64,000 nt of DNA from Acidobacteriota bacterium (GTDB taxonomy: Bacteria > Acidobacteriota > UBA890 > WLXD01). The stretch covers positions 96,001 to 160,000 of the forward strand of contig CBDBHB010000008.1 in NCBI GenBank assembly GCA_965205505.1, given 5' to 3'. The position numbers and the translations under genes were made by a program. The notes beneath the pieces were generated by a model that worked only from the letters and a program-made list of their open reading frames with translations, made no database searches and had not been told where the DNA came from. Below are positions 3,100 to 63,561 of this stretch, one piece after another; the first letter of the stretch is position 1, and each line of letters begins with the position of its first letter.

Positions 3100-3674
3100 G
3101 CCCAGCGCCCAACGTCCGCGCCCTGTTGCTCGACAGCGAAGCCCTGCTGGAGGGTCACTTCGCGCTCTCCTCGGGCCGGCATTCGGACCGCTATCTACAA
3201 TGTGCTCGCGCCCTTCAGCATCCGGACGTCGCCGAGCGACTCGGAGCGGAGCTCGCCCAGCTCTGCCGCGACGAGCTGACAGAGGCCCCCGAAGTGGTTG
3301 TGTCTCCCGCCCTCGGTGGTCTGATCATCGGACATGAAGTGGGGCGAGCCCTGGGGCTGCGAGCGTGCTTCACGGAGCGCGTCGAAGGTGTTATGGAGCT
3401 GCGGCGTGGGTTCGCACTGACCCCTGGCGAGCGTGTGTTGATGGTGGAGGATGTCGTTACGACCGGCCTCAGCAGTCGTGAAACGCTGCAGGTAATCCGC
3501 CAGCACGGCGGCCATCCGGTCGGTGCCGCCTGCATCGCCAATCGCCTCGGGGCCGCGGAGGTCGACGAGCTGCCGCTGCTGGCTCTCTTGATGCTCGATG
3601 CGCCGGTTTGGGAGCCGCATGAGTGTCCGTCATGTGCCGCCGGGAGCACGGCGATCAAGCCAGGGAGTCGCTAG
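3096..3674 (+). CDS. pyrE: Orotate phosphoribosyltransferase
   Basis: GHFALSSGRHS, VEDVVTTGLS, C-terminal CPSC..KPGSR. Confidence 0.95.
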   Translation: MSPAPNVRALLLDSEALLEGHFALSSGRHSDRYLQCARALQHPDVAERLGAELAQLCRDELTEAPEVVVSPALGGLIIGHEVGRALGLRACFTERVEGVMELRRGFALTPGERVLMVEDVVTTGLSSRETLQVIRQHGGHPVGAACIANRLGAAEVDELPLLALLMLDAPVWEPHECPSCAAGSTAIKPGSR

Positions 3675-3949
3675 CAGGCCGTGGTGGAAGTGTGGCGGGT
3701 CTGGTTACGGCGAGTTGGGGCCAGATGCAAGGCGGCCTGACACTGGCGATGCCCTAGCCATCGTCGAGGAAGGCCAACGCCGCAAATGGCCCCAAATCGC
3801 CGTAACCCTTCGGGCGACAGGGGGTTGCGCACGTATGCTGCGTCGTTCCTCGTCAACGATGGGGTAACCATCGCCTCCTCCTCCCTCCTTGCCTCCGCCT
3901 CGCAAGACCCTGTCGCCAGGCCCGCCACACTTCCACCACGGCCTGCTAG
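3671..3949. mobile_element. 279-bp MITE-like element (family A), full copy 1
   Basis: CTAG at both ends; 30-bp TIR CAGGCCGTGGTGGAAGTGTGGCGGG(T/C)CTGG with 1 mismatch; same-length copy at 60507-60785; no transposase. Confidence 0.9.
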
Positions 3950-3950
3950 G

Positions 3951-5705
3951 TCAGTGACGCCCGAGTTGGCGTTCGATTGAGCGGTGATCGAGCCGCAGCA
4001 TGATCGGACGCCCGTGTGGACAGCGGGTCGGCGACTCACACTCTCCAAGCTGAGAAATCAGGCTCGCCATGACCTCCCGTGTCAGTGGCTGATTCGCCTT
4101 GACAGCCGCGTGACACGCGATCGAAGCGGCAACCTGATTCTGGATCTGTTCAGCCGCTTCGCCGCCACGCTCATCGGCCAACGACGCGAGCAGGGCGCGC
4201 AGCGTCGGCGCACCGCGCCGCGCCCCCAACACCTCCGGAACAGTGCGCAGTGTCCAGGTTTGTCCCCCGAACGGCTCGATCTCGAAACCGAACGTGGCCA
4301 GCAGCTCTTGGTGTTGCTCGGCCGCCGCCACCTCTACGGCAGTCAGCTCCACGGTCTCGGGTACCAGCAATCCTTGCACCGGGACGCGGCGACGTCGACG
4401 TTGCTCCAGCACCTGCTCGTAGAGGACCCGCTCGTGCGCCACGTGCTGATCGATGATCAGCAGCCCGTCGTCGTCGACGGCGAGGATGTACGTGTTGGCG
4501 TACTGCGCGATCGCCTGGACGGCGCCGGGGGTGCCCCCAATCGGTGCTGCGACCTGGCTTTCGCGGATATCCCCTCCGATCCCCGAGCCACCGATCGACA
4601 CCCAGTCGCGCAGGGGCAGGCTGGGCGCCCACGGCGCGCGCACTGGGATTCCCGAGGTACCGTCAGGGGCATCTCGAACCACCCCGTCGGACATCGGCTG
4701 TGGCCATGCGCTCGGTGGCGGCAGCCGACTCGCGAGCGACGTCGCCACGGCTCGCCGCAGCACCGCGAAGACGCGGCCCGGCTCGACGAAGCGCACCTCG
4801 GCCTTGCGCGGATGCACGTTCACGTCTACCTCGGCGGGATCGAGTGCAAGAAACAACACCGCCACCGGGAACCGCCGGCGTTCCAGCAGCGAATCGAAGC
4901 CCGACACGACCGCATGTGCCAGGCGACCATCGCTGACCACCCTGCCGTTCACGAACAGGTGGATGTGGCGCCGGTTGGATCGCGTATGCTCCGGGCTCGT
5001 CACGCCTCCGACCACACGTATTTCGCTGCCGCCCTCGACCAGCACCCAGCACTCGGCGACCGCCGCGCCGAGCACCTGATGGATGCGTTCGTCGAGCGCC
5101 GCGACCGGAGGAGCCACGAGGCGCTCGCGGCCGTCTACGGAGAGCGTCAGACCGATGTCCGGCCGCAACAACGCGAAGTCTTCGACCACCGCAGCAACGT
5201 GCCCGGTCTCGGTGGCGTCGGTACGCAGGTGCTTTAGCCGCGCCGGCGTGTTGTAGAAGAGTTCGTGCACGCGCAGACGCGTGCCGCGCGGGCCTACGGA
5301 CGTGCGTACGCTCGGCCTTTCACGCTCTCCGACGCGAATCTCGGCACCAACCCCCTCGCCTGTGCCGGTATGCATCTCGACGCGAGCCACCGCGGCAATG
5401 CTGGCGAGAGCCTCGCCGCGGAAGCCGAGCGTGCGTATGTCGTCGAGATCCTCGACCGTCGCGATCTTGCTCGTCGCGTGTTGCCGGAACGCCAAGACCG
5501 CATCCTCGGACGTCATCCCGTGGCCGTCGTCGTCAACTTCAATCAGCCGCCGGCCGCCGGCCTCGATACGAACATCGATGCGGGAGGCACCCGCATCGAG
5601 AGCGTTCTCGATCAACTCCTTGACGACAGAGGCGGGGCGCTCGACGACCTCCCCTGCCGCGATGCGATCGATGACGGCACCATCGAGCATGTGAATGGCG
5701 TTCAT
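3951..5705 (-). CDS. mutL: DNA mismatch repair endonuclease MutL
   Basis: IAAGEVVERPASVVKELIEN, GFRGEAL, DQHVAHER, ACH, CPHGRP. Confidence 0.97.
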   Translation of the reverse strand: MNAIHMLDGAVIDRIAAGEVVERPASVVKELIENALDAGASRIDVRIEAGGRRLIEVDDDGHGMTSEDAVLAFRQHATSKIATVEDLDDIRTLGFRGEALASIAAVARVEMHTGTGEGVGAEIRVGERERPSVRTSVGPRGTRLRVHELFYNTPARLKHLRTDATETGHVAAVVEDFALLRPDIGLTLSVDGRERLVAPPVAALDERIHQVLGAAVAECWVLVEGGSEIRVVGGVTSPEHTRSNRRHIHLFVNGRVVSDGRLAHAVVSGFDSLLERRRFPVAVLFLALDPAEVDVNVHPRKAEVRFVEPGRVFAVLRRAVATSLASRLPPPSAWPQPMSDGVVRDAPDGTSGIPVRAPWAPSLPLRDWVSIGGSGIGGDIRESQVAAPIGGTPGAVQAIAQYANTYILAVDDDGLLIIDQHVAHERVLYEQVLEQRRRRRVPVQGLLVPETVELTAVEVAAAEQHQELLATFGFEIEPFGGQTWTLRTVPEVLGARRGAPTLRALLASLADERGGEAAEQIQNQVAASIACHAAVKANQPLTREVMASLISQLGECESPTRCPHGRPIMLRLDHRSIERQLGRH

Positions 5706-6493: not shown

Positions 6494-6494
6494 G

Positions 6495-7865: not shown

Positions 7866-8791
7866 CAGGTGATCTCCATCTCGTCGAGCAACCGGGCCTG
7901 CTGCCTCCATTCCGGCTTCACCTTGACCCATAGCTCGAGCACCACGTGCCGACCGATGAGCTCCTCGATCTGACGGCGAGCCGCCGTGCCTACCCGGCGC
8001 AACATCGATCCGCCCTTGCCGATAACGATGGGTTTCTGCCCGTCGCGCTCAACGTAGATCGTAGCGCCGATCTGGACAGTACTCTCACCATCATCGCTCT
8101 CCTCCCAGCGATCTACGGTCACCGCCGTCGTGTAGGGGAGCTCCTCGCGAGTACGGTGCAAGAGCTCCTCGCGCACCATCTCTGCGACCATGAAGCGCGC
8201 CGATCGATCCGTAGTGGTTTCGTCGGGATACAGCAACGGACCCGGCGGAAGGTGACGAAAAACGGCGTCTAGGAACGCGTCCAAGTTGTCGCCCGCGACA
8301 GCAGAGATCGGGATGATATCGGCAAAATCGTGCCGCCGTTGGAACCAGTCGATGGTCGGGAGCAACTGTGGCTTCGCGATGCGATCGATCTTGTTGAGTA
8401 GCAGAACGGTCGGAGCAGCGACGGTGCCCAGAGTGTCTATGAGATAGTCGATGCCGCCGCCTCGCCGCTCGCTGGCATCGACGATCACTGCTACCAGATC
8501 GACGTTGAGCATCGCCTGGCGAGTCGCTCGCATCATGCGACGGTTCATACGGTAGTGGGGGCGGTGCACCCCCGGCGTATCCACGAATACCGCCTGACCG
8601 CGATCCTCCGTCAGAACCCCGCTGATGCGATGCCGCGTAGTTTGCGGCTTGTTCGACACAATGGAGATCTTGGTGCCGACCAGCCGGTTCAGCAGAGTCG
8701 ACTTGCCGGCGTTGGGCCGCCCGACGAGGGTTACCGTGCCGCATCGAAACCCATCAACCGGGGACGTAGTATCGGAAACTATAGTGTCCAT
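7865..8791 (-). CDS. era: GTPase Era
   Basis: GRPNAGKSTLLN, KPQTTR, DTPG, NKID, KH domain VIGKGG. Confidence 0.97.
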   Translation of the reverse strand: MDTIVSDTTSPVDGFRCGTVTLVGRPNAGKSTLLNRLVGTKISIVSNKPQTTRHRISGVLTEDRGQAVFVDTPGVHRPHYRMNRRMMRATRQAMLNVDLVAVIVDASERRGGGIDYLIDTLGTVAAPTVLLLNKIDRIAKPQLLPTIDWFQRRHDFADIIPISAVAGDNLDAFLDAVFRHLPPGPLLYPDETTTDRSARFMVAEMVREELLHRTREELPYTTAVTVDRWEESDDGESTVQIGATIYVERDGQKPIVIGKGGSMLRRVGTAARRQIEELIGRHVVLELWVKVKPEWRQQARLLDEMEIT

Positions 8792-8824
8792 GAAAATCCG
8801 GTGTTCTCAACGCCGTCGGCTAGC

Positions 8825-10051
8825 TCAGAGTGTCGTGATGCGAATCCGGTGAATGCGCCGTTCGTCGGCGTCGAGGACCTCGATATGTAGACCCTCGAAG
8901 TCGAAGCGCTCCCCGGCTTCGGGGACGCGGCCGAGGTGTGTGAAGACCATACCGCCGATGGTATGGAACTCGCCCTCTCGTATGGGGCGGCCAATGGCCT
9001 CTTCAACATCCTCGATCTCGGCCTTCCCGGCAACGATCGCACCGTCGGCGCGGATCTCGACCAGCCGCTCCTCGGGCTCATCCTCATCCTGGATCTCACC
9101 GACGATCTCCTCGAGCACGTCCTCGAGCGTGGCCAGACCGGCCGTCCCTCCGTACTCGTCGACGACGATCGCCATTTGCTCCCGTCGATGCTGAAACTCG
9201 GCCAGCAACTCGTTGACGTGTTTGCTCTCGGGAACGAAGAAAGCTGGGCGCGCGATGCTGGTTACGGGCTCTTCGTCGAGCTGGCCCTGGAGCGCGGTAA
9301 GGAGGTCCTTCAGGTTCACCAGCCCGACGATGTTGTCCAGATCATCGGTGACGACGGGAATACGTGAGAATCGGTGCTCCGCGATCAGCCGCCGTAGTTG
9401 GACAAGGCTCTCCTTGGCGTCGATGGCGATCACGTCGACGCGCGGTGTCATCACCTCGCGGACAATTGTCTCATCGAAGTCGGCCACGCCACGCAGTAGC
9501 GCTTCCTCGGACTCGCTGACCAAACCCTCTTCTTCCGCCAGGTCCAGGAATGCCCCCAGGTCGTCGCGCTCCGCATCATCCGTGTTGGCCAGGTTGCGAG
9601 CTCGGGCGCGGTCAGCCGTACGCGAGAGATAGGCCGCGAGGGGACCGAACACGAGCCGCACCAAACGGGACCACGGCGCGCCGGCCCGGAGCACCCGGTC
9701 TGAGCCGACAAGCGCGACTAGCCAATAGGGCAGCAGCTTGTCGACGATCAGATATGCCGCGATGGTGACAACCAGCGGGGCGACCAGCCATGGCTGCCAC
9801 GCATGGCGCACGCCATGCACGGCAATCTGTACCGACAGGCCGACCAGCAGCAACTGCCGGGCCACGCCCATCGACACGAACGCGATTTCGACCGCCGAAG
9901 ATCCCACCTCGTCGACCTCGTCGGCCAGGGTTCCACTGGCCCATTCGCGCCGTTGCAAACGGCTCAGGCTGCGTCCGGCGACGGTCACTGCCGCGGAGAT
10001 CGCCAAGAGCACGCCGGTCCCGATGAGCGCAGCGACCTCCCCAGCTGTCAT
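8825..10051 (-). CDS. HlyC/CorC (CNNM-CBS-CorC) family membrane protein
   Basis: N-terminal TM region, VREVMTPR, SRIPV, VVDEYGGTAGL.TLED; ATGA overlap with ybeY. Confidence 0.88.
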   Translation of the reverse strand: MTAGEVAALIGTGVLLAISAAVTVAGRSLSRLQRREWASGTLADEVDEVGSSAVEIAFVSMGVARQLLLVGLSVQIAVHGVRHAWQPWLVAPLVVTIAAYLIVDKLLPYWLVALVGSDRVLRAGAPWSRLVRLVFGPLAAYLSRTADRARARNLANTDDAERDDLGAFLDLAEEEGLVSESEEALLRGVADFDETIVREVMTPRVDVIAIDAKESLVQLRRLIAEHRFSRIPVVTDDLDNIVGLVNLKDLLTALQGQLDEEPVTSIARPAFFVPESKHVNELLAEFQHRREQMAIVVDEYGGTAGLATLEDVLEEIVGEIQDEDEPEERLVEIRADGAIVAGKAEIEDVEEAIGRPIREGEFHTIGGMVFTHLGRVPEAGERFDFEGLHIEVLDADERRIHRIRITTL

Positions 10052-10515
10052 GTTGGTGTCCCTGCAGACACGCACCGCGGGCGCAAAGCGCGCTCCAGCC
10101 GCGACATCGTGCCGCCGTCGCTCGTGTGGTCGTATCCGAACAGATGCAACACCCCGTGCAGCGCCAACACGTTCAGCTCGTAGAGGTACGGATGACCGAG
10201 CTCCCGAGCCTGACGGGCCGCCTGGTCGGTACAAATCATCACATCGCCCCAATACTCTGGGTCGCCCGCATCTGGCCGCATCGCCTTCGTGTCCAGCAGC
10301 GCTCCATCGTTCACCGGAAACGACAGCACGTCAGTGGTGGTGTCCTTGCCGATGAACCGGCCGTGATGATCAGTCATGAGCGCATCGTCCACGAATGCGA
10401 AGGCGATTGTTCCCGTGCCCCGGTCGCCGCAAGCGCGGGCGACTTCCGCCACCCGGCGGAGATTCGATGCCGCCAGCACCGGTCGAAGCTGATAGTTCCG
10501 CACGACTACGTTCAA
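10048..10515 (-). CDS. ybeY: rRNA maturation endoribonuclease YbeY
   Basis: TDVLSFP, HGVLHLFGYDH. Confidence 0.95.
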   Translation of the reverse strand: MNVVVRNYQLRPVLAASNLRRVAEVARACGDRGTGTIAFAFVDDALMTDHHGRFIGKDTTTDVLSFPVNDGALLDTKAMRPDAGDPEYWGDVMICTDQAARQARELGHPYLYELNVLALHGVLHLFGYDHTSDGGTMSRLERALRPRCVSAGTPT

Positions 10516-22256: not shown

Positions 22257-24665
22257 TTGGCTCGGACACGCACGGCTCAGACACAGGCGGCTCGCGCTAC
22301 CACGGCCCGTAAGCGAGCGACACGCAAAGCGCGCCGATCCCACGCCAAGAGTCGGCATCCGAGCCGCCGAGGTGAGTTCCTCGGCATGATCATGCTCGCA
22401 GCGACCACCTTCCTGCTCGTGTCGCTGTACTCATACGACGCCGCCGACGGAGACCTGTTCATCCACATCGCCGGCGACCCGCCCAAAAACCTCGGCGGCA
22501 CCGTTGGCGCTACGTTCGCGGCGCTCGCTTTCCAGATGTTGGGCATCGGCGCGTGGGTCGGAGTCGCGACTTGCGGAACCCTGGGCTGGTGCCGCATTCG
22601 AGGGGAACACATTCCCGCAGTGATCACCAAGACCATCGGGTTGGTCACATTCGTAGGCTTCGGTTGCATTCTGGCGCACTACGGACTCGGGGATGTTTGG
22701 CTCGGTGGACGCCCCTCGCCCGCTGGCGGGTTGCTCGGCGTATCTGGTGGCCATACGTTGCTGGGGGCGTTCGGATCGGTTGGGGGTCCGCTGGTGGCCG
22801 CCACGGCATCGCTGTTGGCGCTGATCGCCGTTACCAAGCTATCGCTCGCTCGCGGCGCGGTCGTGCTGTGGTCGACATGTACGGCCGGCATCAGGCAGGC
22901 GCGTACGACAACAGCGCGCTGGAGGGAACGGCGCCGCAAGACACGTCAGCGTCGCACGGTGATCAAGAAGTACGCTGCCCGGCACGTCGACGAAGAGATC
23001 GAGACAATATCGACAGTCACCGACTCGGGTGCTCTGCTGACATTGCGCGTCCCGGTCAATGCCACCCGCCTGGGAGCACCGGTTCCTGAGCTCTTGCTCG
23101 ACCCCGACGCCGGGCTTGAAGCCAACGCCGATACCGGCATGCCGCGAATCGAGCTCACCGAGCCGAGCGCGTCCGCGGCGCTGCCGTTCGAACAGCCGGC
23201 CGGCCCCGATGGCGACTACGCCCTACCGGAAACCGAGCTACTGAATCAGTCTGAAGCCGGCCAGGCAATCGACCAGAAAGAGCTGATGGAGAAGGCCAAA
23301 GCCATCACCTCCAAGGCGGCTGAGTTCCGCGTCACCGGCGAGGTGGTAGCGATCCACCCCGGCCCGGTGGTGGCCACTTTCGAGTTCCGGCCTGGCACCG
23401 GCGTCAAGTACAGCCGCATAACCAACCTTGAAGATGACCTCAGCCTGGCGCTCAAAGCCGAGTCGATCCGTATCGCCCGTCTACCCGGCAAGGCCACTGT
23501 CGGCATTGAGGTGCCCAACAACGACCGCGCCACAATCGGTTTCCGCGACATCATCGAGTCGGCCGAGTTCCAAGGCTCTAAGTCAAAGCTCACGTTAGCG
23601 CTCGGCAAGCAGATCCACGGTGAGACGACGGTCACCGACCTCGCACGCATGCCGCACCTGCTTATCGCCGGCACGACCGGTGCCGGCAAGAGCGTGGCGC
23701 TCAACTGCATGCTGTTGAGCTTGCTCTACAAGGCCACGCCCGACGAAGTGAAGGTCGTGCTGATCGACCCCAAACGCCTGGAATTCGGTCTCTACAAGGA
23801 CATCCCGCATCTGCTCACGCCCGTCGTTGTCGAGCCCAAGTTGGCCGCCAACGCGCTGGCCTGGGCTGTGCGAGAGATGGAGCAACGCTACAAGCTGCTG
23901 GCGGAGTACGGCGTACGTAGCGTCGATCAGTTCAACCTGATCCTCAAGCGCGGGGGCCGGGAGCTAGGCGACATAGACGAGGCTGCCGAAGAGCTCAAGC
24001 CCCTCCCCTACATCGTGGTCATCATCGACGAGCTCGCCGATCTCATGATGACCTCTTCGAACCTTGTCGAGGAAGCGATCATCCGACTGTCGCAAATGGC
24101 GCGAGCGGTCGGCATTCACCTGATTCTGGCTACTCAGAGGCCCTCCGTTGACGTGCTCACCGGCGTCATCAAGAACAACCTGCCGGCGAGAATGAGCTTC
24201 CGCGTCGCTTCACGGATCGACTCGCGAGTGATTCTCGACACGCACGGGGCCGAGACCCTGCTCGGGCACGGCGACATGCTCTTCCTGGCACCCGGAACGT
24301 CCCGACTGTCTCGAGTACACGCCGCTTTCGTTACCGAGCAGGAGGTAAAGTCGGTAGTCGCCTTCTGGCGCGATCAAGCGCGTCCGACCTACTCGACTGA
24401 GGTTACCCAGGCACCCCCGGCGTCGGCTGGCAGGGGCAAGGGCGCAGATCCGTCGGCGCGCGACGAGTTCTTCGCTGACGCCGTGCGCGTCGTGGTAAAT
24501 GCCGGCGAGGCCTCAGTCTCCAACATTCAGCGCAAGCTCAGTCTCGGATACGCGCGCGCCGGTCGCATCATGGACATGATGGAAGTGGAAGGAATCGTCG
24601 GACCGCCGAGTGGCTCGAAACCCCGCAGGGTGCTGGTGGACTCGAGCTATCTGGCGTCTCTCTAG
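22257..24665 (+). CDS. ftsK: DNA translocase FtsK
   Basis: N-terminal TMs, PHLLIAGTTGAGKS, IDELADLM, ATQRPS, gamma domain. Confidence 0.97.
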   Translation: MARTRTAQTQAARATTARKRATRKARRSHAKSRHPSRRGEFLGMIMLAATTFLLVSLYSYDAADGDLFIHIAGDPPKNLGGTVGATFAALAFQMLGIGAWVGVATCGTLGWCRIRGEHIPAVITKTIGLVTFVGFGCILAHYGLGDVWLGGRPSPAGGLLGVSGGHTLLGAFGSVGGPLVAATASLLALIAVTKLSLARGAVVLWSTCTAGIRQARTTTARWRERRRKTRQRRTVIKKYAARHVDEEIETISTVTDSGALLTLRVPVNATRLGAPVPELLLDPDAGLEANADTGMPRIELTEPSASAALPFEQPAGPDGDYALPETELLNQSEAGQAIDQKELMEKAKAITSKAAEFRVTGEVVAIHPGPVVATFEFRPGTGVKYSRITNLEDDLSLALKAESIRIARLPGKATVGIEVPNNDRATIGFRDIIESAEFQGSKSKLTLALGKQIHGETTVTDLARMPHLLIAGTTGAGKSVALNCMLLSLLYKATPDEVKVVLIDPKRLEFGLYKDIPHLLTPVVVEPKLAANALAWAVREMEQRYKLLAEYGVRSVDQFNLILKRGGRELGDIDEAAEELKPLPYIVVIIDELADLMMTSSNLVEEAIIRLSQMARAVGIHLILATQRPSVDVLTGVIKNNLPARMSFRVASRIDSRVILDTHGAETLLGHGDMLFLAPGTSRLSRVHAAFVTEQEVKSVVAFWRDQARPTYSTEVTQAPPASAGRGKGADPSARDEFFADAVRVVVNAGEASVSNIQRKLSLGYARAGRIMDMMEVEGIVGPPSGSKPRRVLVDSSYLASL

Positions 24666-24719
24666 ATTCCCGCAAACGGAGGTTCGTTGCGTATTGCCGG
24701 GGCGAGATAGCGCGGGCAA

Positions 24720-27396: not shown

Positions 27397-29238
27397 CTAG
27401 CGATTCCGTACTTGCACTTCGATCTGGTGGGAGCCGCTGACCACGTAGTCAACTGGCTGCACGATCTCGAGGATCAGCGCACGATCAAGCCGAACCACGT
27501 CGCCCTTTGCCTGCTCGGAGCTCAACACTTGCAGGACCGAGGGAGGCAACGCCGGCAGCGTCTCTCCGTTCAGCAGCGCTCCCGTGGCGGCGCGCGTCGC
27601 CCGCATGTACAGCCGATCACTGCGGCGGAGATTGTTCAACAACCGAATCACTTGAGCGAGATTCCGCGGTCGGTTGGAACTCTGAATCGCGGCCGCCTCC
27701 CGCTGCTCGATCGACGCGGCATCGCCGACCACGAGCGTCACCGGGCCGGGCGGCGTGCCCGGCGGCACGGTGAACTTCAGCTGCTCGAGAACCTCCGGCC
27801 CCCGAAATGGCTTCAGCGCCACCGTCACCGTCACCGTCTCGCCCGGTCTGACGCTCGCCCGGTCGTACCAAATGCGGCTGATCGTCGCGCTTCTGCGATC
27901 GTGCCGCAGGTTGATGGACAGCTCGATCCCCTGCACCTCGACCGGCTCAAACGCGTTGTCGTAGAGCGCCCCGAATAGACCGGCCAGGGCCGACGACAGC
28001 GACAAGATCGCCTGGTTGGGAGACGAGAACAGGTTGTCGAAACGCACCGGATCGAGCCCGTCACCAAGTTCGATCTGTGCGTCGACCTCAATGGAGCCCT
28101 CGCCGAAGGTACGGTCGAGGCTCTGAATACCGCTGACCAGGCCGAAGAACAGATACAGCGGTGTGATGAGCCGGTCGGCGACGATCTCGAAATCAAGGCG
28201 CTCCGTTCTTCCCGCCGCTTCGATCCGCGTACGCACCGGGACCATCCGCGGCTGTGCGCCGATGATCCCCAGGATCGCGGCTTGCCGGTCCTGCCGAACG
28301 GCACCCACCACCTGATCTCCGGCAACCGCGAGCTTGGAGGAAGCTTGCGAGCTACTGAGCACAGTCACGACCTGCGCCGCGACCATCGGAAAATCGACGT
28401 TGCCCCCGTGCAGGAACGGGTGTCCAAAAGCGAGGAGCCGATCTCCATCGCGATAGGTAACCGTCCCGGAAGCGGTGATGTTGATGTCCCCTCGGACGAG
28501 TTGAACGGCAACCATGCCGCCGGGCTCGAGATTGGCCTCGATCTCCATCGAACCGGCGGTTCCGCCAAGCGTGGGCGTCCACCCGAGCAAATCAAACAGC
28601 GGAGCGAGGCGCCCGACGAGCGTCGGCGCCAATCCCCCGATGGCGATCGGTGTCGAGATCGGCCGTACCCCTTGCATGGCACCGTGTAGCGGCAGCAGCG
28701 CCTCGGCACTGCCCGCGCCGGTCAACAGATCGGCCGCAGCCTGCAAGACAAGCTCCGGCGAGACATCCACTGCCACCGACGTCCCCGGGCCGCCGGATTC
28801 GAGCGCCGACACCTGCAACATTTCTTCGATGGACACGATCCCGGCGACCGCCTCGTGCCCGAAGTTCACCAGCCGATAGGCCACGGCGCCCAGGAGGCGG
28901 CCGTCGATGTACACCGGACTGCCGCTCATCCCAGCCAGCACGCCAGCGTGCTCGAGACCCAGCCCGGTGAGCCGCGCGACGATCAGATCGTGCTTCGGGA
29001 ACACGTTGTGCAGCACACCGAGCACCTCGGCGCTGAAGCTCTCGGGCTCCGTACCACGCACGACCGTATACCCGGTGCCCACCATGCCAACGCGGACCTC
29101 CGAGAAACTCATCAGCTCGGGTGTCGTCGCCGCGCTTGCCTGCGCTCGCGGCGCCGATCCCAGCGCCGGGCCGCCAGCCACGACGGCGAGCGCAAGGGCC
29201 CCGAGAAATGGTCTGAGAAGATGGGCAGATCGGCTCAT
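27397..29238 (-). CDS. SpoIVB-like peptidase S55 domain protein, secreted
   Basis: Signal peptide, GMSGSPVYIDG, GTVTY, AFGHP. Confidence 0.85.
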   Translation of the reverse strand: MSRSAHLLRPFLGALALAVVAGGPALGSAPRAQASAATTPELMSFSEVRVGMVGTGYTVVRGTEPESFSAEVLGVLHNVFPKHDLIVARLTGLGLEHAGVLAGMSGSPVYIDGRLLGAVAYRLVNFGHEAVAGIVSIEEMLQVSALESGGPGTSVAVDVSPELVLQAAADLLTGAGSAEALLPLHGAMQGVRPISTPIAIGGLAPTLVGRLAPLFDLLGWTPTLGGTAGSMEIEANLEPGGMVAVQLVRGDINITASGTVTYRDGDRLLAFGHPFLHGGNVDFPMVAAQVVTVLSSSQASSKLAVAGDQVVGAVRQDRQAAILGIIGAQPRMVPVRTRIEAAGRTERLDFEIVADRLITPLYLFFGLVSGIQSLDRTFGEGSIEVDAQIELGDGLDPVRFDNLFSSPNQAILSLSSALAGLFGALYDNAFEPVEVQGIELSINLRHDRRSATISRIWYDRASVRPGETVTVTVALKPFRGPEVLEQLKFTVPPGTPPGPVTLVVGDAASIEQREAAAIQSSNRPRNLAQVIRLLNNLRRSDRLYMRATRAATGALLNGETLPALPPSVLQVLSSEQAKGDVVRLDRALILEIVQPVDYVVSGSHQIEVQVRNR

Positions 29239-29335
29239 GGTGCTCAGAGAAAAGACGCGCCTAGTTTCATGCTAGCAGGGGCCGCTCGCGGCGCACAACG
29301 CGGCCACATTGAGCTGGTTGCGTGCGTCTCGCGAC

Positions 29336-33300: not shown

Positions 33301-33354
33301 GCTCTCTCTCTCCCGATGCGCTGAGCGGTGGCTCCTCAGCGCCGTAACCACGGC

Positions 33355-33381
33355 CGCTACACCACCACCACGGCCGGCTAG
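33355..33381. repeat. Decayed terminal stub of family A
   Basis: CGCTACACCACCACCACGGCCGGCTAG resembles TIR CGCCACACTTCCACCACGGCCTGCTAG. Confidence 0.65.
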
Positions 33382-33492
33382 TGTCCTGAGTCAGTGATCC
33401 GTTGCGTATTGCTGGGTCGAGATGCGGCAAGCCTGGATCCGACTCGGTTGCGCTTGCCACGATACGCAACGAACCTCTGCTACAGCACACTA
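33379..33492. mobile_element. 114-bp MITE-like element (family B) bounded by TA
   Basis: Imperfect 31-bp TIRs TAGTGTCCTGAGTCAGTGATCCGTTGCGTAT and TAGTGTGCTGTAGCAGAGGTTCGTTGCGTAT (reverse complement); single copy in window. Confidence 0.7.
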
Positions 33493-39987: not shown

Positions 39988-40001
39988 CCACGGCCTGCTA
40001 A
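39988..40001. repeat. Short terminal stub of family A at the ribD stop
   Basis: CCACGGCCTGCTA(A); reads TAG-CAGGCCGTGG on the minus strand. Confidence 0.6.
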
Positions 40002-42030: not shown

Positions 42031-42033
42031 CGT

Positions 42034-42047
42034 CCACGGCCTGCTAG
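42034..42047. repeat. Short terminal stub of family A at the IS630 insertion site
   Basis: CCACGGCCTGCTAG, exact match to the TIR end. Confidence 0.7.
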
Positions 42048-43134
42048 TGTAGCGTCTCTAAAATGGCTTTACAGCGATTAACTTTGTCGATGATCTGCTG
42101 GGCGGAAGCACTCCAAACATAGGGCTTGGGATCGTCGTTGTAGTTGGCAATGAAGTTCTCGATGTTTTGGATGAGTGCTTGGACGGAAGGAAACGCAGCT
42201 CGTCGGACGCTTTTTGTTGTCAGCTCAGCGAACCAGCGCTCCACCAGGTTCAGCCACGAGGAGCTTGTTGGAATGAAGTGCAGGTAAAAGCGACGATGCC
42301 GAGACAACCACTTCTTCACATTGGGGTGCGTGTGGGTGCCGTAGTTGTCAACGATCAGATGCAGATCTAGTTCCTGGGGGAACTCGCGGTCGAGCTTGCG
42401 TAGGAACTTCAAGAACTCTTGATGCCGATGACGCGGCAGACACTGACCGATGACGGTTCCGTCCAGCATGTTCAGGGCGGCGAAAAGGCTCGTCGTACCG
42501 TGGCGCTTGTAGTCGTGGGCATGGTTCCGGCACGGCCCTTCTTGAGCGGCAACGACGGCTGCGTGCGGTCCAAAGCCTGAATCTGAGACTTCTCATCCAC
42601 GCACAGCACTACAGCCCGATCTGGCGGATTCATGTACAGGCCGACCACGTCGGTGAGCTTGTCCACGAAGTGGGGATCCTTGGAGAGCTTGAACGTCTTG
42701 ACCAAGTGAGGCTTGAGTCCGTGAGCGTCCCAGATCCGCTGGACCGTGGCGGCACTGACCCCTTGCGCCTTGGCCATCGTTCGGCACGACCAATGAGTGG
42801 CGTTGGGTGGCTTGGTGTGCAACGTTGCTTCGACGATCTGTTTGATCTTGTCCCGGGAGATGGACCGGGGTCGTCCACGTCCCGGCCTGGTCTGCCCCAG
42901 CGCCACGGGACCTGCTTTCTCGAACCGCCTTCTCCACATGATCACAGTCGGCCGGCTGATGCCGAGCTGATCAGCAATCCCGCTATTGGACTCGCCATCT
43001 GCCGCCAGCAGGATGATCCCGGCACGAGTCGCTACTGACTGTGGTGTGCTGGGGGCTCGGAGCCAGGCTTCCAGAACGTCTCGATCCTTGTCCGCGAGCG
43101 CTATCGGTTCTGCTTTTGTGGCCATGCGAAGCAC
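42044..43134 (-). pseudogene. IS630 transposase with a 1-nt frameshift near 42520
   Basis: [18 protein letters not shown]; HDYKRHG continues in another frame; [17 protein letters not shown]. Confidence 0.85.
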
Positions 43135-43185
43135 AATACAATGGTCTTCATCTAATGTAAAGCTATTTACGATACACTATACTAG
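42044..43185 (-). mobile_element. IS630-family insertion sequence
   Basis: Imperfect ~29-bp TIRs (TAGTGTAGCGTCTCTAAAATGGCTTTACA and TAGTATAGTGTATCGTAAATAGCTTTACA), TA duplication within CTAG, DDE transposase. Confidence 0.95.
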
Positions 43186-51498: not shown

Positions 51499-51599
51499 GC
51501 GACCCGCAAATCCCATCTGCGATAGGCAACGATCATCTGTTTACAGGCCACTTCTAAGAGAAGGCCTAGTTCGGTCAAGGGCAATGTGGTGCCCAGCGA

Positions 51600-51800
51600 A
51601 GAATCGATCTGCACGCCATGCTCCTATTCGCACTCTGGTGGACGAGGATTCAGGTCGTCCGGTGCATTCTGGGGTCCGTCCCGATTCGAGGCGCTGCAAT
51701 CTAGCTGCCGAGCTCGAAGCTCGTAGTGACCTTCGCAGTCGCCCGGACCGGGCGGTCAGATCGATAACCGTTGGGTCGCGTCGCCCTACCGACCTCCTGG
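51600..51800 (-). ncRNA. Putative bridge/seek RNA of the IS110 element
   Basis: Stem-internal loop-stem at 51690-51743 and a second stem-loop at ~51620-51668; loop segments match the element's own junction; boundaries approximate. Confidence 0.55.
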
Positions 51801-51812
51801 TTGCGGGTTAGT

Positions 51813-52315
51813 TCATGCTGCTGAAACCTCTACAGGTGCGCGCAACGGTTCGTACTCGTCTCCACTCAGCCACAGTCGGTGCAGCACAACGGCGAGCTTA
51901 CGGGCGACAGCAACTGCTGCCTTTTTGTTGCCATGAGGACCACCGCGTCCGGCCAGCTTGAGCCCCCAGCGTCTGAGCTCAGTATCGGGCCCGAAGGGGC
52001 CCAGGATGTAATGCGCCGAGCCCACCAACAGGCGTCGGAGCATTTTGTCGCCCGCCTTGGTTATTCGTAGCGCAGGGTCCTTGTCCCCCGACTGCCGTTT
52101 CTTCGGTCTCAGTCCCAGGTACGGGCCCACGGCTCTGGAGGTATTGAACCGCTCCGGCTCCTCGAGCGTCAGCACATACGCCAGTGCGGTCAGAGCTCCG
52201 ACCCCGGCCACTTGCTGGAGCTGCTGTGTCTCCGGGTATCGCCCCTGGCACAGCTGCACGATCTGACGCTCGTATTGCTGGATGTTGCCCGTCAGCATGG
52301 CGATCGTTTCAAGCA
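51813..52315 (-). pseudogene. IS110 recombinase C-terminal fragment (N-terminal DEDD domain missing)
   Basis: GVG.LTA, YLGL.P...QSG, RITKAG...LRRLLV, AVAVARKLAV.LH. Confidence 0.9.
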
Positions 52316-52380
52316 CTCCTTGCCTGCACTTCGCAAGACCCTGTCGCCAGACCCACCACACTTTCACCACGGCCTGCTAG
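52316..52380. mobile_element. Partial family A copy (65 bp) at the tsf stop
   Basis: CTCCTTGCCT..CGCAAGACCCTGTCGCCAGACCCACCACACTTTCACCACGGCCTGCTAG. Confidence 0.85.
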
Positions 52381-54509: not shown

Positions 54510-54517
54510 GATTCCTC

Positions 54518-54910: not shown

Positions 54911-54920
54911 CGTCTCCTCG

Positions 54921-57539: not shown

Positions 57540-57730
57540 CTAGTGTCTTCCTCCAAGCCGCACAGCGACCTCGGTACAGGCGAGCGAGCGCGCAGCTTGG
57601 TTACACGATCAGGGGTGGGGTGGAGTGTGCTTCCCCGAGGTGTGTTCCCAGCAGGCTTCGAAGTTCCCCTTCGCCGCGCCCGCGTTCCGCTTCTTTTCTT
57701 ACCCCGTTTCCTTCCGCAGCAGGCGCACGA

Positions 57731-57991
57731 CTAGTGTCGCAATCCTAGCCTCTTTATTAGATTCTGGTACCGTGCCACATCTACGCGCCGCAGGTAATCA
57801 AGCAGGCGGCGACGCTTGCCGACGAGCATCTGCAACCCGCGCTGGGTCGCATAGTCGCTCCGGTTGGCCTTCATGTGTTCCGTGAGGTGCCGGACGCGCG
57901 AGCTTAGCTGCGCGATTTGAACCTCTGACGACCCCGTGTCCGCCGGGTGCTGCCGGTACTCGTCGATCGCTATCTCCGCTTGATTCATCAT
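57731..57991 (-). CDS. rpsO: 30S ribosomal protein S15
   Basis: DTGSSEVQIA, GKRRRLLDYL, LGLR. Confidence 0.96.
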   Translation of the reverse strand: MMNQAEIAIDEYRQHPADTGSSEVQIAQLSSRVRHLTEHMKANRSDYATQRGLQMLVGKRRRLLDYLRRVDVARYQNLIKRLGLRH

Positions 57992-58147
57992 CCTCTTCGC
58001 GTAACTCGCTATCTACCGTGTTCATGGGTTTGCCAAGGCACACAAGGTTCACAGGCGTCCGGACGCACGAGCGCCAGGCAGGCGGCAACGGTAGCATGGG
58101 GCCTGTTGGCTGTAAACGCGCCGCAGGCGCCAGGGAGCGGCAGCGCG

Positions 58148-58239
58148 TCGTCAACGATGGGTCACCATCGCCTTCTCCTTGCCTTCGCCTCCCAAGACCC
58201 TGTCGCCAGACCCACCACACTTCCACCACGGCCTGCTAG
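58148..58239. mobile_element. Partial family A copy (92 bp) at the truB stop
   Basis: TCGTCAACGATGGGTCACCATCGCC...CCACACTTCCACCACGGCCTGCTAG. Confidence 0.88.
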
Positions 58240-59159
58240 AGCAGCACGATGCGCGGTTGCAGCATCCCCCCGGGAAGCAGCTCCGCCGCGGCCAGTAGAT
58301 GCGCTTCCGGATCCATCACTCGCACCCAGCCTCCGCGGCTCCGCGACGGTGCCGAGCCGTCAGCCGGAACGCGCTCGACGATGCAATGAGGCTCTAACAC
58401 CCCGCCGTGGCGAAGGACGTCGACGCCCACCCGATCTACCACCACGCCGGGCCACTCTTGCACCATGGCGGCCGCCGGCAAAATGCCGGCCTCGATGTCC
58501 TCGACCGGGCCGCTGGCCAAGATCTCCCAGCTCAGCGCCCCCGACAGATCGAACCGTCCGATTCGCAAGCGGCGCAGCGAAGCAAGGTGCGCCGGACACC
58601 CCACCGCCACCCCGATGTCGTGCGCCAGGGTACGCACATACGTGCCCGATCCGCAGTGCACGCGCAACTTCAGGACGTCGGCATCGTGATCGATCAGATC
58701 AATGGAGTAAACACGCACGGGCACCGGCTCGTGAACGACCACTTCTCCACGCCGAGCCCGCTTGTAGGCCGGCTGACCGCGAATCTTCTTGGCCGAATAA
58801 ACAGGCGGAACCTGCTGGATCTCGCCGACGAATGACTCCAGGATCTCTGCCAGTCGTTGCGGCTCTATGGCCGGCACAGGAATGCGACTGCCTACCATCT
58901 CGCCTTCGGAGTCGTAGGTATCCGTGGCCCAACCGAGCCGAATGCCGCATTCGTACAGCTTGTCCTGGCTTTGCAGAAACCTCGCCAACCGCGTCGCACG
59001 GCCCAAGCACAGGATCAACACACCAGTTGCCTGTGGATCGAGCGTCCCGGTGTGCCCAACGCGGCACCGGAGCCGTTGTCGCACCTTGGCAACGACGTCG
59101 TGGGACGTCACGGCGGGAGGCTTGTCGGCCACCAGCATGCCGGCCAGCTTGTTGTTCAA
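58236..59159 (-). CDS. truB: tRNA pseudouridine(55) synthase
   Basis: DKP..TSHD, GHTGTLDP, PPVYSAKK, GTYVRTL. Confidence 0.97.
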   Translation of the reverse strand: MNNKLAGMLVADKPPAVTSHDVVAKVRQRLRCRVGHTGTLDPQATGVLILCLGRATRLARFLQSQDKLYECGIRLGWATDTYDSEGEMVGSRIPVPAIEPQRLAEILESFVGEIQQVPPVYSAKKIRGQPAYKRARRGEVVVHEPVPVRVYSIDLIDHDADVLKLRVHCGSGTYVRTLAHDIGVAVGCPAHLASLRRLRIGRFDLSGALSWEILASGPVEDIEAGILPAAAMVQEWPGVVVDRVGVDVLRHGGVLEPHCIVERVPADGSAPSRSRGGWVRVMDPEAHLLAAAELLPGGMLQPRIVLL

Positions 59160-60130
59160 CCGACTACGCCTCGTGATCGCTTGGACCTGATCTTCGTCAT
59201 GATGCTCGCACGCACCTCCTCGAGCGAGCCATCGAGCTGGCAGCCGGCGGCGCGCGGATGGCCGCCGCCCCCATAGGACGCGGCGAGCTCGGCAACGTCT
59301 ACGCTCCCATCGGAGCGTAGGCTGACCCGGAAACGATCGCGGGCGACCTCCTTGAAGAGCAGCGAGACTCCGACGCCGGCGATCGCTTGCGCCTGATTGA
59401 TCAGCCCCTCGGTATCACCGCCGCCCCGACGCGCGAAATCACGACGCCAGAGCACCATCCAGGCAACGTAGCCATGTTCCTCCAACTTCAGCGTCGCGAG
59501 CGCGTCGGCAAGGAGGTAGACGCGCGCCGCCGGCACGTTGCCGTACACCGCCTCCGCGATCGCAGACGCGTCGGCGCCCAAGCTGACCATGTCGGCAGCA
59601 AACTGGAGGGCTGCCGCGTCGGTATTGGAATGGTGGAACGAACCAGTATCGGTAAGCACCGCGACGTACAGCAGAGTGGCTATTGAGGGTGTGATCTCGG
59701 CTCCCAAGGGCTCGGCTAGACGCGCCACCATCATGCTGGTAGCGGCGACCTGCGGATCGATCCAGTTCACGTTGGCGAACATTGCGTTCTGACTGTGATG
59801 ATCGATGTTCAGCGACTCGATTCGATCGAGCCCCGAGACCCCGGCACGAGCAAAATCCGAGCACTCGACCAGAATGCTAGCGCGAGCCCGGCGCGACACC
59901 GCATCGAGCGACTGTACTCGGGAGCACTCCGGCAACCAGCCAAACCGCTGAGGGAATGGCTGCTGGATCACCACCTCTGACCGCTTACCGACCTGATCGA
60001 GCATGAGCGACAGGCCGAGCGATGAGCCCAGCGAATCGCCGTCTGGATCGGTGTGCGAGGCGATGACAAAATCGTCGCGTCGGTCGATCCACCGGACTGC
60101 CCGGTCTATTCCGTCACCCGTCGGCGGCAT
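59156..60130 (-). CDS. nrnA: DHH family phosphoesterase (NrnA-like)
   Basis: H..PDGD, IDHH, TDTG, SLRS, GGGH..AAG. Confidence 0.88.
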   Translation of the reverse strand: MPPTGDGIDRAVRWIDRRDDFVIASHTDPDGDSLGSSLGLSLMLDQVGKRSEVVIQQPFPQRFGWLPECSRVQSLDAVSRRARASILVECSDFARAGVSGLDRIESLNIDHHSQNAMFANVNWIDPQVAATSMMVARLAEPLGAEITPSIATLLYVAVLTDTGSFHHSNTDAAALQFAADMVSLGADASAIAEAVYGNVPAARVYLLADALATLKLEEHGYVAWMVLWRRDFARRGGGDTEGLINQAQAIAGVGVSLLFKEVARDRFRVSLRSDGSVDVAELAASYGGGGHPRAAGCQLDGSLEEVRASIMTKIRSKRSRGVVG

Positions 60131-60491
60131 CCGTCCCACCTTCCTCCGGCTCCTGCGGCGCACCCTGACGGATCAGCTCATCGATTCGATCGCCGTGATC
60201 GAGGGTACGGTCGACCTCGAAATGCAACTCGGGTGTTCGACGCAGCTGTACCCGTCGCCCGACCTCCCTGCGGAGGAAACCGCTCGCCCGAGTCAGGCTT
60301 TGCATCGACTTCGTTTCCGCATCGGCGTCGCCGAGCACGCTGATGAATACACGGGCGTGACACAGGTCAGCGCTCATGCGTACCTCGGTCACTGTGACGA
60401 AGCCCAGCCCTGGATCCTTGACCTCGTTCAACAACAGGTCAGCCAGCGCTGCCCGCAGGCTGTCTCCAACACGTCGTGGTCGATGCCGCAT
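60114..60491 (-). CDS. rbfA: Ribosome-binding factor A
   Basis: KDP, VTVTEV..SADL, LRRTPELHF. Confidence 0.96.
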   Translation of the reverse strand: MRHRPRRVGDSLRAALADLLLNEVKDPGLGFVTVTEVRMSADLCHARVFISVLGDADAETKSMQSLTRASGFLRREVGRRVQLRRTPELHFEVDRTLDHGDRIDELIRQGAPQEPEEGGTDAADG

Positions 60492-60506
60492 CGTTCGGTT
60501 CCTTGC

Positions 60507-60785
60507 CTAGCAGGCCGTTGTGAAAGTGTGGCGGGCCTGGTTACGGCGAGTTGGGGCCAGATGCAAGGCGGCCTGACGCAGGCGATGCCCTAGCCATCGT
60601 CCAGGAGGGCCAACGCCGCAGATGGCCCCAAATCGCCGTAACCCTCCGGGCGATAGGGGGTTGCGCGCGTATGCTGCGTCGTTCCTCGTCAACGATGGGG
60701 TAACCATCGCCTCCTCCTTTCTCCTTGCCTCCCCCTCGCAAGACCCTGTCGCCAGGCCCGCCAAACTTCCACCACGGCCTGCTAG
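60507..60785. mobile_element. 279-bp MITE-like element (family A), full copy 2
   Basis: Colinear with 3671-3949, CTAG at both ends, scattered substitutions. Confidence 0.9.
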
Positions 60786-60801
60786 CACGCCGTTGTGGAA
60801 G
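60782..60801. repeat. Decayed family A terminal stub sharing its CTAG with copy 2
   Basis: CTAGCACGCCGTTGTGGAAG versus CTAGCAGGCCGTGGTGGAAG. Confidence 0.65.
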
Positions 60802-60867
60802 CCCGGCTGCGAGATATTCAGCCCGGTATTACGCCGTTACCCGCCACGAGCGCAAGCGTCAGCGCGC

Positions 60868-61146
60868 CTACAGGTACTCGATGCGATGGCGCAGCAACTG
60901 GGCGTCGTGGGCCTCAGCCTCGCGAACGACACGTTCAAACAACCCCTCCAGGGGGCGCTGCGATGCCGATATCGACGCCACTGCTACGCCAGCTCGCTGC
61001 CGCAAATCCTGATGCTCCACCTCGGCGACCGCAACGTTGAAGCGAGCCTTCAGCCGCCCTTTCAGACGGTTGAGAAACATGCGCTTTTCCTTGAGGCTCC
61101 TGCAGCCTGCGAGATGAAACTCAAGGCTGCAGACCCCGATGATCAT
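60868..61146 (-). CDS. DUF503 (YlxP-like) protein
   Basis: SLKEKR, FNVAVAEV..QD; position between infB and rbfA. Confidence 0.9.
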   Translation of the reverse strand: MIIGVCSLEFHLAGCRSLKEKRMFLNRLKGRLKARFNVAVAEVEHQDLRQRAGVAVASISASQRPLEGLFERVVREAEAHDAQLLRHRIEYL

Positions 61147-61209
61147 GACTTGGCCTCACCACCGCTCGGCGCCGGGAGAGCCAGTCCGATCGACGTCAGG
61201 GCGGGACGT

Positions 61210-63467
61210 TCAGAGGCTGGGAGCAATCTCCTTGAGATCGTACGCCTCGAGCACGTCACCGATCTTGACGTCGTTGAAATTCTCCAGCCCAATGCCACAC
61301 TCGTAGCCTTGCTGCACTTCGCGCACATCTTCCTTGAACCGACGCAGGGAGCCGACCTTGCCCTCGTAGATGATGCGTGAATCGCGTACCAGGCGAGCCC
61401 GCGTACCACGGGAGAACTTACCGTCGGTCACGTAACAACCCGCCACGACGCCGGCGCGCGGCACCCGGAAGGTATCGCGTACTTCCGCAGACCCCGTCGC
61501 CCGTTCTTCGAACGTCGGGTCCAGCTTGCCGACCATGGCCTCCCGCACCTCGTCGATAAGCCGGTAGATGACGGTATGTAGCCGCAGATCGACACGCTCG
61601 TGCGTCGCTGCGTCGGCCACCCCACGTTCCGGCCGCACGTTGAAGCCCACGATGATGGCGTCGGATGCCGACGCCAACAGTACGTCCGTCTCGGTCACGC
61701 CACCAACAGCGGCGAGCATGATCTCCACCTGCACCGAGTCGCCCGAGAGCTTGCTCAGGGCATCGCTGAGCGTCTGCACGGATCCCTTCGTGTCAGCCCT
61801 CAGTACCACCCGGAGCTTCACGCGTTCGCCCTCGAGGATGCGAGCGTGAAGGTCTTCAAGCGTCAAGCGCGAGCCGGCGGCTAGGTTTTCCGTACGCGCC
61901 TTGAACTGACGTAATTCAGCGACCTTCCGCGCCACTGAAGCCTCTTCGACCACCTGGAAGCTATCGCCGGCTTCCGGCACGCCGGAAAACCCGAGCACCT
62001 CTACAGCGGTCGCCGGAGGCGCATCCTTCGTCTGCTGGCCGCGCGCGTCGATCATCGCACGCACCTTGGCGCTCTCGGTGCCGGCAACGAGCGAATCGCC
62101 TACGCGCAAGGTACCTTCCTGAACCAGCAAGGTTGCCAAGGCGCCCCGCTGGCGATCCAGCTGAGCTTCGAGCACGGTGCCGCGTGCCGAAATCTCCGGG
62201 TTCGCTTTCAGCTCGAGGAGCTCCGACGATAGGATGATCATCTCCAACAGCTCGTCGAGATTCTCCTTGGTCTTGGCCGATACTGATACGCACACCGTGT
62301 CTCCACCCCAATCCTCAGGCGTCAACTGGTGCTCGATGAGCTGCTGCTTGGCACGCTCGACGTTGGCTTGCGGCAGGTCGATCTTGTTGATGGCCACCAG
62401 AATCGGCACGTTCGCCGCGCGCGCGTGACCAATAGCCTCAACGGTCTGCGGCATGATGCCGTCGTCGGCGGCCACCACGAGGACGACGATGTCGGTGATC
62501 TGCGCGCCGCGAGCCCGCATACGTGTGAACGCCTGGTGGCCAGGCGTGTCGATAAGCACGATGCGATTGCCCTTCCACTCAACTTCGGAGGCGCCGATAT
62601 GCTGCGTGATCCCGCCCGCTTCCCGTGCCACGACGTTGGTTTCCCGAATCGAATCCAGTAGTTGCGTCTTGCCGTGGTCGACGTGGCCCATGATCGTCAC
62701 CACCGGGGCGCGCGGCGCCAAATCCGCCTCGTCGCCGGCGTCCTGTTCGCCGAGCAGCCGCTCGTCGGCGGTAACAACTCTGAGGTTTACACCGTGCTCT
62801 GCGGCGATCGCCATCGCCACCTCGGCGTCGAGCGACTGAGTGAGGTTGGCCATGATGCCCTTGGCCATGAGCTTGGTGATGATCTCCGTAGGACTGATTC
62901 CGGCCGCTTCCGCAAGCTCACGGACGGTAACGCCTTCTTCGACCTCGATTGGCTCCGAGTCGAGCGTCGCTGCAACCGTCCCGTTCGCCTCGGTCACGTC
63001 GTCGACGGCCTGTGGCTCGTCGACAACGTCGGCTTCGGCTTCTTCGACCTCCGACATCGCGTCGACCGGCTCAGGCTTCGCCTCGATCTCTACCGGCGGC
63101 TCGGGCTTGGCTCGGGCTTGGCCTCGGATTTCGCCTTGGCCTCGGATTTCGCCTTGGCCTTGGGCTTCGCCTTGACCTTGGGCTTCGCCTTGACCTTGGG
63201 CTTCGCCTTGACCTTGGGCTTCGCCTTGACCTTGGGCTTCGCCTTGGCCTTGGGCTTCGCCTTGACCTTGGGCTTCGCCTTGACCTTGGGTTTGACTTTG
63301 GCGTCGGCCGCGTCGGTCCGACCCGCGAGCAGCTCGCGAAGCCGGCCAGCGTCGGCATCCGAGATGGCGTTGGCGTGCGATTTCACCGCTACGCCAAGGT
63401 CGTTGAGCCGCTCGATGGCAACCTTGCTCGCGATGTCGAGCTCCTTGGCGATCTCGTGTACTCGCAT
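61210..63467 (-). CDS. infB: Translation initiation factor IF-2; 1-nt frameshift near 63110
   Basis: [11 protein letters not shown]-domain (63090-63467), then [25 protein letters not shown] in 61210-63057. Confidence 0.95.
63119..63300. repeat. 18-bp tandem repeat, about 10 units, encoding (KAKPKV)n in infB
   Basis: GGCTTCGCCTTGACCTTG units directly visible. Confidence 0.92.
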
Positions 63468-63547
63468 CGGATCTCTCTGTCTCTAGGTTCTGGACTTCGT
63501 TTCGTGTGGGTTCTGCGACTAGGTGTGGGTTCTGCGAAGGGTGCCGG

Positions 63548-63561
63548 CCATGGCCTGCTAG
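63548..63561. repeat. Short terminal stub of family A at the nusA stop
   Basis: CCATGGCCTGCTAG, 13/14 match to the TIR end. Confidence 0.55.

Follow-up and report, generated by a model that had tools for sequence, protein, structure and literature searches.

Correia elements of Neisseria and the transposable elements of the miniature inverted-repeat class (MITEs) derived from IS630, such as MITEEc1, are abundant, small inverted repeats that lie between genes and in operons, are moved in trans and have a TA target core, and effects on transcription have been documented for Correia elements and for MITEEc1. In the excerpts of the literature on which we draw here, MITEEc1 is named (PMC11602168); the insertion sequence (IS) IS5 duplicates Py-T-A-Pu, most often CTAG (PMC5493358); MITEPsy1 of Pseudomonas syringae, which is 100 nt long with 18-nt repeats, is thought to derive from ISPsy2, duplicates CTAG or YTAA, and has been trapped transposing (PMC3189936); and in IS870 of Agrobacterium vitis and ISMt1 of Mycobacterium tuberculosis the stop codon is supplied by the CTAG target (PMC13630536, citing Fournier 1993). 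Here we describe a 279-bp element found in a 64,000-nt stretch of DNA from an Acidobacteriota bacterium (contig CBDBHB010000008.1, positions 96,001 to 160,000), referred to below at its full length as the window. It forms a family of non-coding MITEs that carry CTAG at each end, and very probably it is mobilised in trans, targets CTAG, survives at those CTAGs where an insertion is tolerated, and then decays in ordinary ways.

The element is of a known kind and implies no new mechanism; what it brings to the Acidobacteriota is a well-delimited family of MITEs together with a candidate for the partner IS. Our literature search found no paper describing this element or an Acidobacteriota MITE family. 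As far as MITEPsy1 is described in its excerpted source, the two are alike in being small and non-coding, with IS-like terminal repeats and a CTAG-type tetranucleotide on both sides. They differ in that the present element is 279 bp long, has repeats of about 33-47 nt and a long inner hairpin, resides in Acidobacteriota, bears no sequence likeness to MITEPsy1, and has a mobility that is deduced from comparison instead of trapped. Unlike Correia elements and MITEEc1, it has different ends and a different presumed transposase family.

Matches to the 14-nt end motif with at most two mismatches number 12 in the window, against 0.71 expected and a maximum of three in 100 shuffles, which confirmed the initial annotation in its proposal of a 279-bp family with terminal inverted repeats at nine loci. 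Two copies are full length (3671..3949 and 60507..60785, both on the plus strand, 279 bp each and 95% identical to each other), with 47-nt inverted arms that are 85% complementary in the first and 81% in the second; of the seven others, three are partial copies and four are short end-stubs. A profile derived from 18 full-length copies recovered this same set in the window and nothing else of significance. The interior of the element is a non-coding, strongly self-pairing 275 bp bounded by two CTAGs, and its predicted fold is Y-shaped and very stable on both strands (-182 kcal/mol, z = -13). A 66-codon frame, present on the minus strand of the copy at 3671-3949 and in the other full copies, follows a purine-rich stretch, ends at the terminal TAG and is open in 15 of 18 copies; since 15% of composition-matched shuffles also contain such a frame, open throughout and closed by the terminal TAG, we regard it as probably incidental and do not assign it a coding role. 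The whole window gave no match to Rfam at gathering score and nothing in a tRNA scan, and the 279-mer had no match in a plasmid collection. The motif match at 35380 was rejected as a copy; it has no CTAG, lies inside the trmD/rimM coding overlap and is probably due to chance.

A scan of species-representative genomes with the 21-nt end returned at least 68 loci, from which copy numbers are lower bounds; among the matches listed these belong mostly to Acidobacteriota metagenome-assembled genomes (MAGs). One MAG holds at least 16 distinct full-length copies that are 93-97% identical to the window copy at 3671-3949. We called gene stops with a simple codon-usage classifier in the window and in all of these loci, about 1 Mb with duplicates removed. 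The sample contained 88 insertion events, and 77 remained after 11 that lie within 250 bases of a contig end had been dropped. CTAG is scarce in the window (58 occurrences against 111 expected from shuffles), and the whole sample holds 707 background CTAGs outside the family, of which 107 (15%) are at predicted gene stops, 438 inside genes and 162 between genes. The idea that CTAG here falls mostly at stop codons, on which the initial annotation had built, is contradicted by these figures. Its expectation that occupied sites are enriched at stops when compared with all CTAG sites held, with predicted stops accounting for 32 of the 77 insertions and for 107 of the 707 background CTAGs (odds ratio 4.0, p=3e-7). 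When the comparison is restricted to the 269 CTAGs outside gene interiors, of which 107 are stops, the enrichment disappears (odds ratio 1.08, p=0.79). The share of stops among insertions thus equals that among CTAGs outside gene interiors, which argues for survival of harmless insertions and not for targeting of stops. The simplest reading is that CTAG targeting together with loss of gene-breaking insertions is enough for the pattern, and the family is in this respect a worked example of a CTAG-target transposon that sits on core-gene stops because it is tolerated there, not because it is aimed there.

The search for a transposase flanked by matching ends yielded one among the listed loci, in a 1505-bp element at positions 8517-10021 of locus L024. 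At each end, 20-21 of the outer 21 nt are shared with the MITE, after which the two sequences diverge. Its open reading frame (ORF) encodes a protein of 472 aa that matches the NCBIfam models for IS1182 (E 2.5e-46, 158.6 bits, curated cut-off 270) and IS5 (E 2.3e-22, 79.7 bits, cut-off 140); DUF772 scores above its Pfam cut-off and DDE_Tnp_1_6 just under (21.9 vs 25.1 bits), and the protein has at least 8000 relatives in a large protein collection. As far as the excerpted account of IS5 of Escherichia coli allows, the likeness lies in a DDE transposase, a CTAG target and the match to IS5-family models, and the difference in the length of the element and in a protein closer to the IS1182 model, both scores falling under their cut-offs. 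An IS5-type partner, as suggested by the initial annotation, thus finds support as to its kind. The ORF reads through the end repeat and terminates at the terminal TAG. The five C-terminal residues encoded by the end repeat recur in 63 of the 120 homologues listed, and the residues before them vary freely; fixed terminal residues behind variable ones fit a constraint on DNA and not on protein. These ends alone also recur in four unrelated elements, each about 166 bp long, from four other MAGs. The shared ends point to the IS lineage of L024 as the one that would move the MITE in trans. No transposase related to it occurs in the window, in agreement with the earlier statement that no cognate transposase is present there, or in the other 67 listed loci; the window does hold IS630 and IS110 sequences, which touch copies of the family.

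A second partner IS, proposed at 10001-11285 of locus L034, was rejected, as what lies there is a gene for a membrane protein, and its 3' end looks like a stub. The end of that gene with its TAG (11271-11291) is stub-like with three mismatches, and may be a gene end that was extended into an old remnant.

Comparison of orthologous sites gives evidence of movement. Locus L028, from the copy-rich MAG, is the orthologue of window 17445-39397, with an identity of about 91%. At 27397..27400 the window contains one CTAG, which holds the stop of ORF 27397-29238, and the L028 orthologue has a complete copy of 279 bp with a CTAG at either side, so that one CTAG at the empty site corresponds to two at the filled site, as had been predicted. 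At the rnhB stop the situation is reversed, with L028 empty, its stop lying in a CTAG, and the window occupied. The CTAG at 24662..24665 of the window, which holds the ftsK stop, corresponds in L028 to an internal MITE fragment that has lost its end repeat. Locus L015, a more distant relative (about 67-72% identity), covers ribE-ribD-ftsY and lacks a stub at the stop of ribD; just 5' of the ftsY start it carries other members of the family, at a place that in the window is taken by a stub of opposite orientation. Because filled, empty and decayed states differ at orthologous sites in L028 and L015, the element appears to have stayed mobile after these lineages separated, and some sites seem to have been struck repeatedly. 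Orthologues of the pyrE/mutL, tsf, truB, rbfA and nusA sites were not present among the loci. CTAG is found at both ends of 15 of 19 full-length copies, one end of each being fixed by the search pattern.

Taken together, these results are consistent with a MITE that has no transposase of its own and on which, judging from the shared ends, a DDE transposase of the IS5/IS1182 kind would act in trans through the outer 17-21 nt of the end repeats. Insertion at CTAG leaves a CTAG on either side, as the filled and empty orthologous sites show, and because both strands of CTAG contain TAG, a gene stop in the target survives insertion in either orientation; the claim that insertion at a CTAG stop leaves the stop of the gene intact was borne out. 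In a compact genome where CTAG is scarce and where about 40% of the CTAGs outside gene interiors are stops, survivors would be expected to pile up at gene ends, including those in core operons. Copies would then decay by ordinary deletion, that is by internal deletions, recurrent loss of the inner hairpin and one-sided truncation, and would be further disrupted by other mobile elements, which make use of the duplicated CTAGs as well.

Several observations weigh against this explanation or narrow it. The L024 transposase scores under the curated cut-offs of both the IS1182 and the IS5 model, making its family placement approximate, and an IS with matching ends was seen once among the listed loci, in a MAG other than the copy-rich one. 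Stop calls are limited by the classifier, which recovers 50 of the 56 annotated stops of the window, and the sample is mixed MAG DNA that was picked for nearness to copies. The window alone, inspected by hand, has six of eight loci at stops, a share above that of the wider sample. The filled site in L028 that corresponds to window 27397 carries eight extra bases, CTAGTGGC, beside the element, which a simple model does not explain. Lastly, mobility is deduced from two polymorphic orthologous sites only.

The genes around the copies were named with NCBIfam and Pfam. The full copy at 3671..3949 lies between the convergent genes pyrE and mutL, with the pyrE stop (3672-3674) contained in its left CTAG and the mutL TGA (3951-3953) 1 nt past its right CTAG. 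The two stops were 1 nt apart before the insertion, which makes the CTAG there the sole harmless site. The full copy at 60507..60785 lies between a DUF503 gene and rbfA, within the infB-rbfA-truB gene string, and touches no gene stop; it has one CTAG in common with an inverted 20-nt end-stub on the minus strand (60782..60801), which is the remnant of a nested or adjacent insertion. A 92-nt right-end remnant on the plus strand (58148..58239) aligns, with a gap of 7 nt, to positions 179-279 of the consensus and supplies with its TAG the stop of truB (58236-58238). Another right-end remnant on the plus strand, of 65 nt (52316..52380), covers consensus positions 214-279 with one mismatch; its TAG is the tsf stop (52377-52379), and its inner edge adjoins an IS110-family fragment.

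The plus strand also carries three 14-nt end-stubs. In the first (39988..40001), the CTA at 39998-40000 is the ribD stop, read on the plus strand as CTAA. The second (42034..42047) lies just 5' of the ftsY start, and its CTAG is the target of an IS630-family insertion. The third (63548..63561), which has one mismatch, provides with its TAG the stop of ORF 63558-63959, upstream of infB. All three match over 13-14 nt only, and local alignment found no extension above shuffled controls. A domain search of ORF 63558-63959 returned helix-hairpin-helix domains only; the gene is probably nusA, a name that rests on gene order upstream of infB. With this proviso, the earlier assignment of the terminal TAG as the stop of pyrE, ribD, tsf, truB and nusA is correct. 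The family accounts for the recurring sequence after TAG stops, for intergenic debris in ribosomal and translation operons, and for some gene-end extensions, all of which bear on annotation. Close to the third stub, nine copies of an 18-nt repeat (63091-63324) stand 5' of the annotated infB start in a frame that is open throughout, and the annotated start of IF-2 may not be the real one.

At rnhB the site has been overwritten by other insertions. A diverged end remnant on the minus strand (33329..33381; 42-53 nt, 77%) lies 3' of rnhB, with an unrelated small inverted-repeat element, family B, between it and the gene (33382..33489); this element sits at the CTAG of the remnant and is flanked by CTAG and CTAA. 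A stub had been placed here at 33355-33381, which was right as to its presence and too short as to its extent. Likewise, the TAG does lie at the rnhB stop, as claimed, but two inserts have to be removed for this to be seen and not one, namely the 112-bp family B element that separates remnant and gene and a B-like insert of 38 bp, which puts the last 11 codons out of frame, so that the rnhB ORF now continues through both elements. In the 33382-33560 region family B, of which few copies were found, measures about 112 bp; a B-like piece is also found 3' of the ftsK stop (24680-24710), and B-type ends adjoin stubs in loci L011 and L029. The CTAGs that were doubled by insertion are places where stubs, other copies, family B and the IS630-family element are often stacked.

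Remnants of the family in the wider sample show several modes of decay. Many keep both ends after an internal deletion, giving mini-elements 33-66 bp long, some of which show short matches where the two ends are joined. Four copies are without the left inner hairpin, and their breakpoints differ slightly, a pattern that suggests that deletion driven by the hairpin has happened repeatedly. Seeding with 7-mers revealed end matches of 10, 11, 13, 14, 17, 18 nt and more, a continuum; the apparent stub length of 14 nt was therefore discarded as a special length, as 14 is the detection floor of the 14-mer search word. The initial annotation had read the copies of the window as a visible decay series. 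The tsf remnant does not fit such a series of ages, as it departs from consensus at one of 65 positions and ends against an IS110 fragment, so that it was cut recently and not slowly worn down. The C-terminal half of an IS110-family transposase gene (51813..52315, minus strand) ends exactly at the inner edge of this remnant, and the cut was probably made by a single deletion spanning the MITE and the IS110 element. The 860-bp tsf-pyrH spacer (51517-52376) is mobile-element debris, in which the MITE remnant is joined to the IS110-family C-terminal half.

The initial annotation had also proposed that copies are trimmed selectively from the side away from the upstream gene, a full copy being polar on the downstream genes of the operon. 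The window by itself favours this view, since five truncated copies keep the end at an upstream stop (tsf, truB, ribD, the nusA-like ORF and, minus two inserts, rnhB), all in tight operons. In the wider sample, however, predicted gene stops adjoin 28 of the 99 ends retained by truncated copies, compared with nine of 22 ends of full-length copies; by stub size the figures are 11 of 25 (10-20 nt), 13 of 56 (21-40 nt) and four of 18 (41-139 nt). Selective trimming is also at odds with the full copy between the DUF503 gene and rbfA, which persists inside the infB-to-truB string, with the frequency of remnants that keep both ends, and with the remnant at the ftsK stop in L028, whose lost end repeat is the one on the gene side. 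Retention of the gene-side end would be expected in any case, because its loss would remove the stop codon, and the polarity argument is unneeded. We therefore think it unlikely that relief of polarity has shaped the remnants.

The preferred explanation, a CTAG-targeting MITE moved by an IS5/IS1182-like transposase, must also be weighed against movement by a transposase of the IS630/Tc1-mariner type, which would insert at the TA in CTAG and duplicate TA only, so that the element itself would run from G to C. IS630-type elements prefer CTAG and duplicate TA. The window contains such an element, of 1136 bp on the minus strand (42047..43182), which was inserted at the CTAG belonging to the stub at 42034-42047 and is bordered by duplicate TAs (42045-42046 and 43183-43184). 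Several two-ended copies of the MITE, moreover, differ only at the outermost base of the tetranucleotide (CTAG vs CTAA, CTAT or CTAC), for which a duplication of 2 bp is simpler than one of 4 bp. But variant ends changed at other positions of the tetranucleotide are equally many, and these variants do not settle the matter; CTAG being palindromic, duplications of two and of four bases are not distinguishable. The ends of the IS630-family element match each other at 21 of 30 positions and do not resemble those of the MITE, the listed loci contain no further IS630 copy, and the sole IS with matching ends among the listed loci encodes the IS1182/IS5-like protein of L024. On balance, an IS630-type partner seems quite improbable to us.

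The IS630-family transposase lies in two frames that are split near the start of the DDE domain, by frameshift or decay. Its last codon is completed by the target, and its stop consists of the duplicated TA and the flanking base. The proteins of the window's IS110 and IS630 elements were found in none of the listed loci beyond short spurious end-repeat matches. In the surrounding region (41800-43975), removal of the IS630 element and one TA leaves the frame of a TPR protein without a stop, running in frame through the stub into ftsY; with the element in place, this frame stops six codons into the IS.

Co-option by the host is a further alternative, in which copies, or the stubs after stops, would be retained because their RNA or DNA structure has a function, for instance as a terminator, a site of processing or a site where a protein binds. 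The very stable fold on both strands would suit such a role, and the hairpin of the full copy between the convergent pyrE and mutL could act as a two-way terminator. Yet the window has no Rfam family match, terminator-like matches in 57600-61300 number three against 1.8 expected, orthologous sites are empty, filled or differently decayed among relatives, and stub lengths form a continuum, so that we hold co-option to be very unlikely. A palindrome of the REP/REPIN type was dismissed, since REP elements are 20-40-bp palindromic units without target duplication that are linked to a RAYT transposase (PMC3733652, in excerpt) and the present element is a 279-bp unit whose terminal inverted repeats are long and which has a CTAG at either side; no search for RAYT genes was made.

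A trans-mobilised MITE that survives at tolerated CTAGs may also bear on the IS lineage from which it would draw its transposase. As in the excerpted account of IS870 and ISMt1, the transposase frame ends at the TAG of the junction CTAG, both in the L024 IS and in the IS630-family element of the window; unlike those autonomous elements, the MITE is a non-autonomous derivative whose terminal TAG serves host genes. It is conceivable, though we think it doubtful, that the palindromic CTAG end is an adaptation of the whole IS lineage, with the same TAG closing the transposase frame and restoring the host stop in either orientation. If so, the stops of essential genes in compact genomes would be a safe niche for the IS and its MITEs, and, as each insertion doubles the niche, the gene ends of core operons would become self-renewing landing pads for CTAG-seeking elements.

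Some further repeats came to light in the same material. A sister repeat family (L012 at 7526 and 12476, L058 at 16990, four sites in L059, and L036 at 4973) has its first eight end bases in common with the MITE, then differs in the outer end repeat, and resembles the MITE again inside. About 2 kb of the window (29302-31287), with a peptidyl-prolyl isomerase domain gene and, after it, 147-nt repeats, is represented in L028 by about 73 nt (12185-12257). Within rpsB (53277-54509), 56 in-register copies of a 9-nt period (53168-53700) give a long repetitive C-terminal tail of S2, and rpsB also has a weak match, under its cut-off, to a 'sunset domain variant' model.

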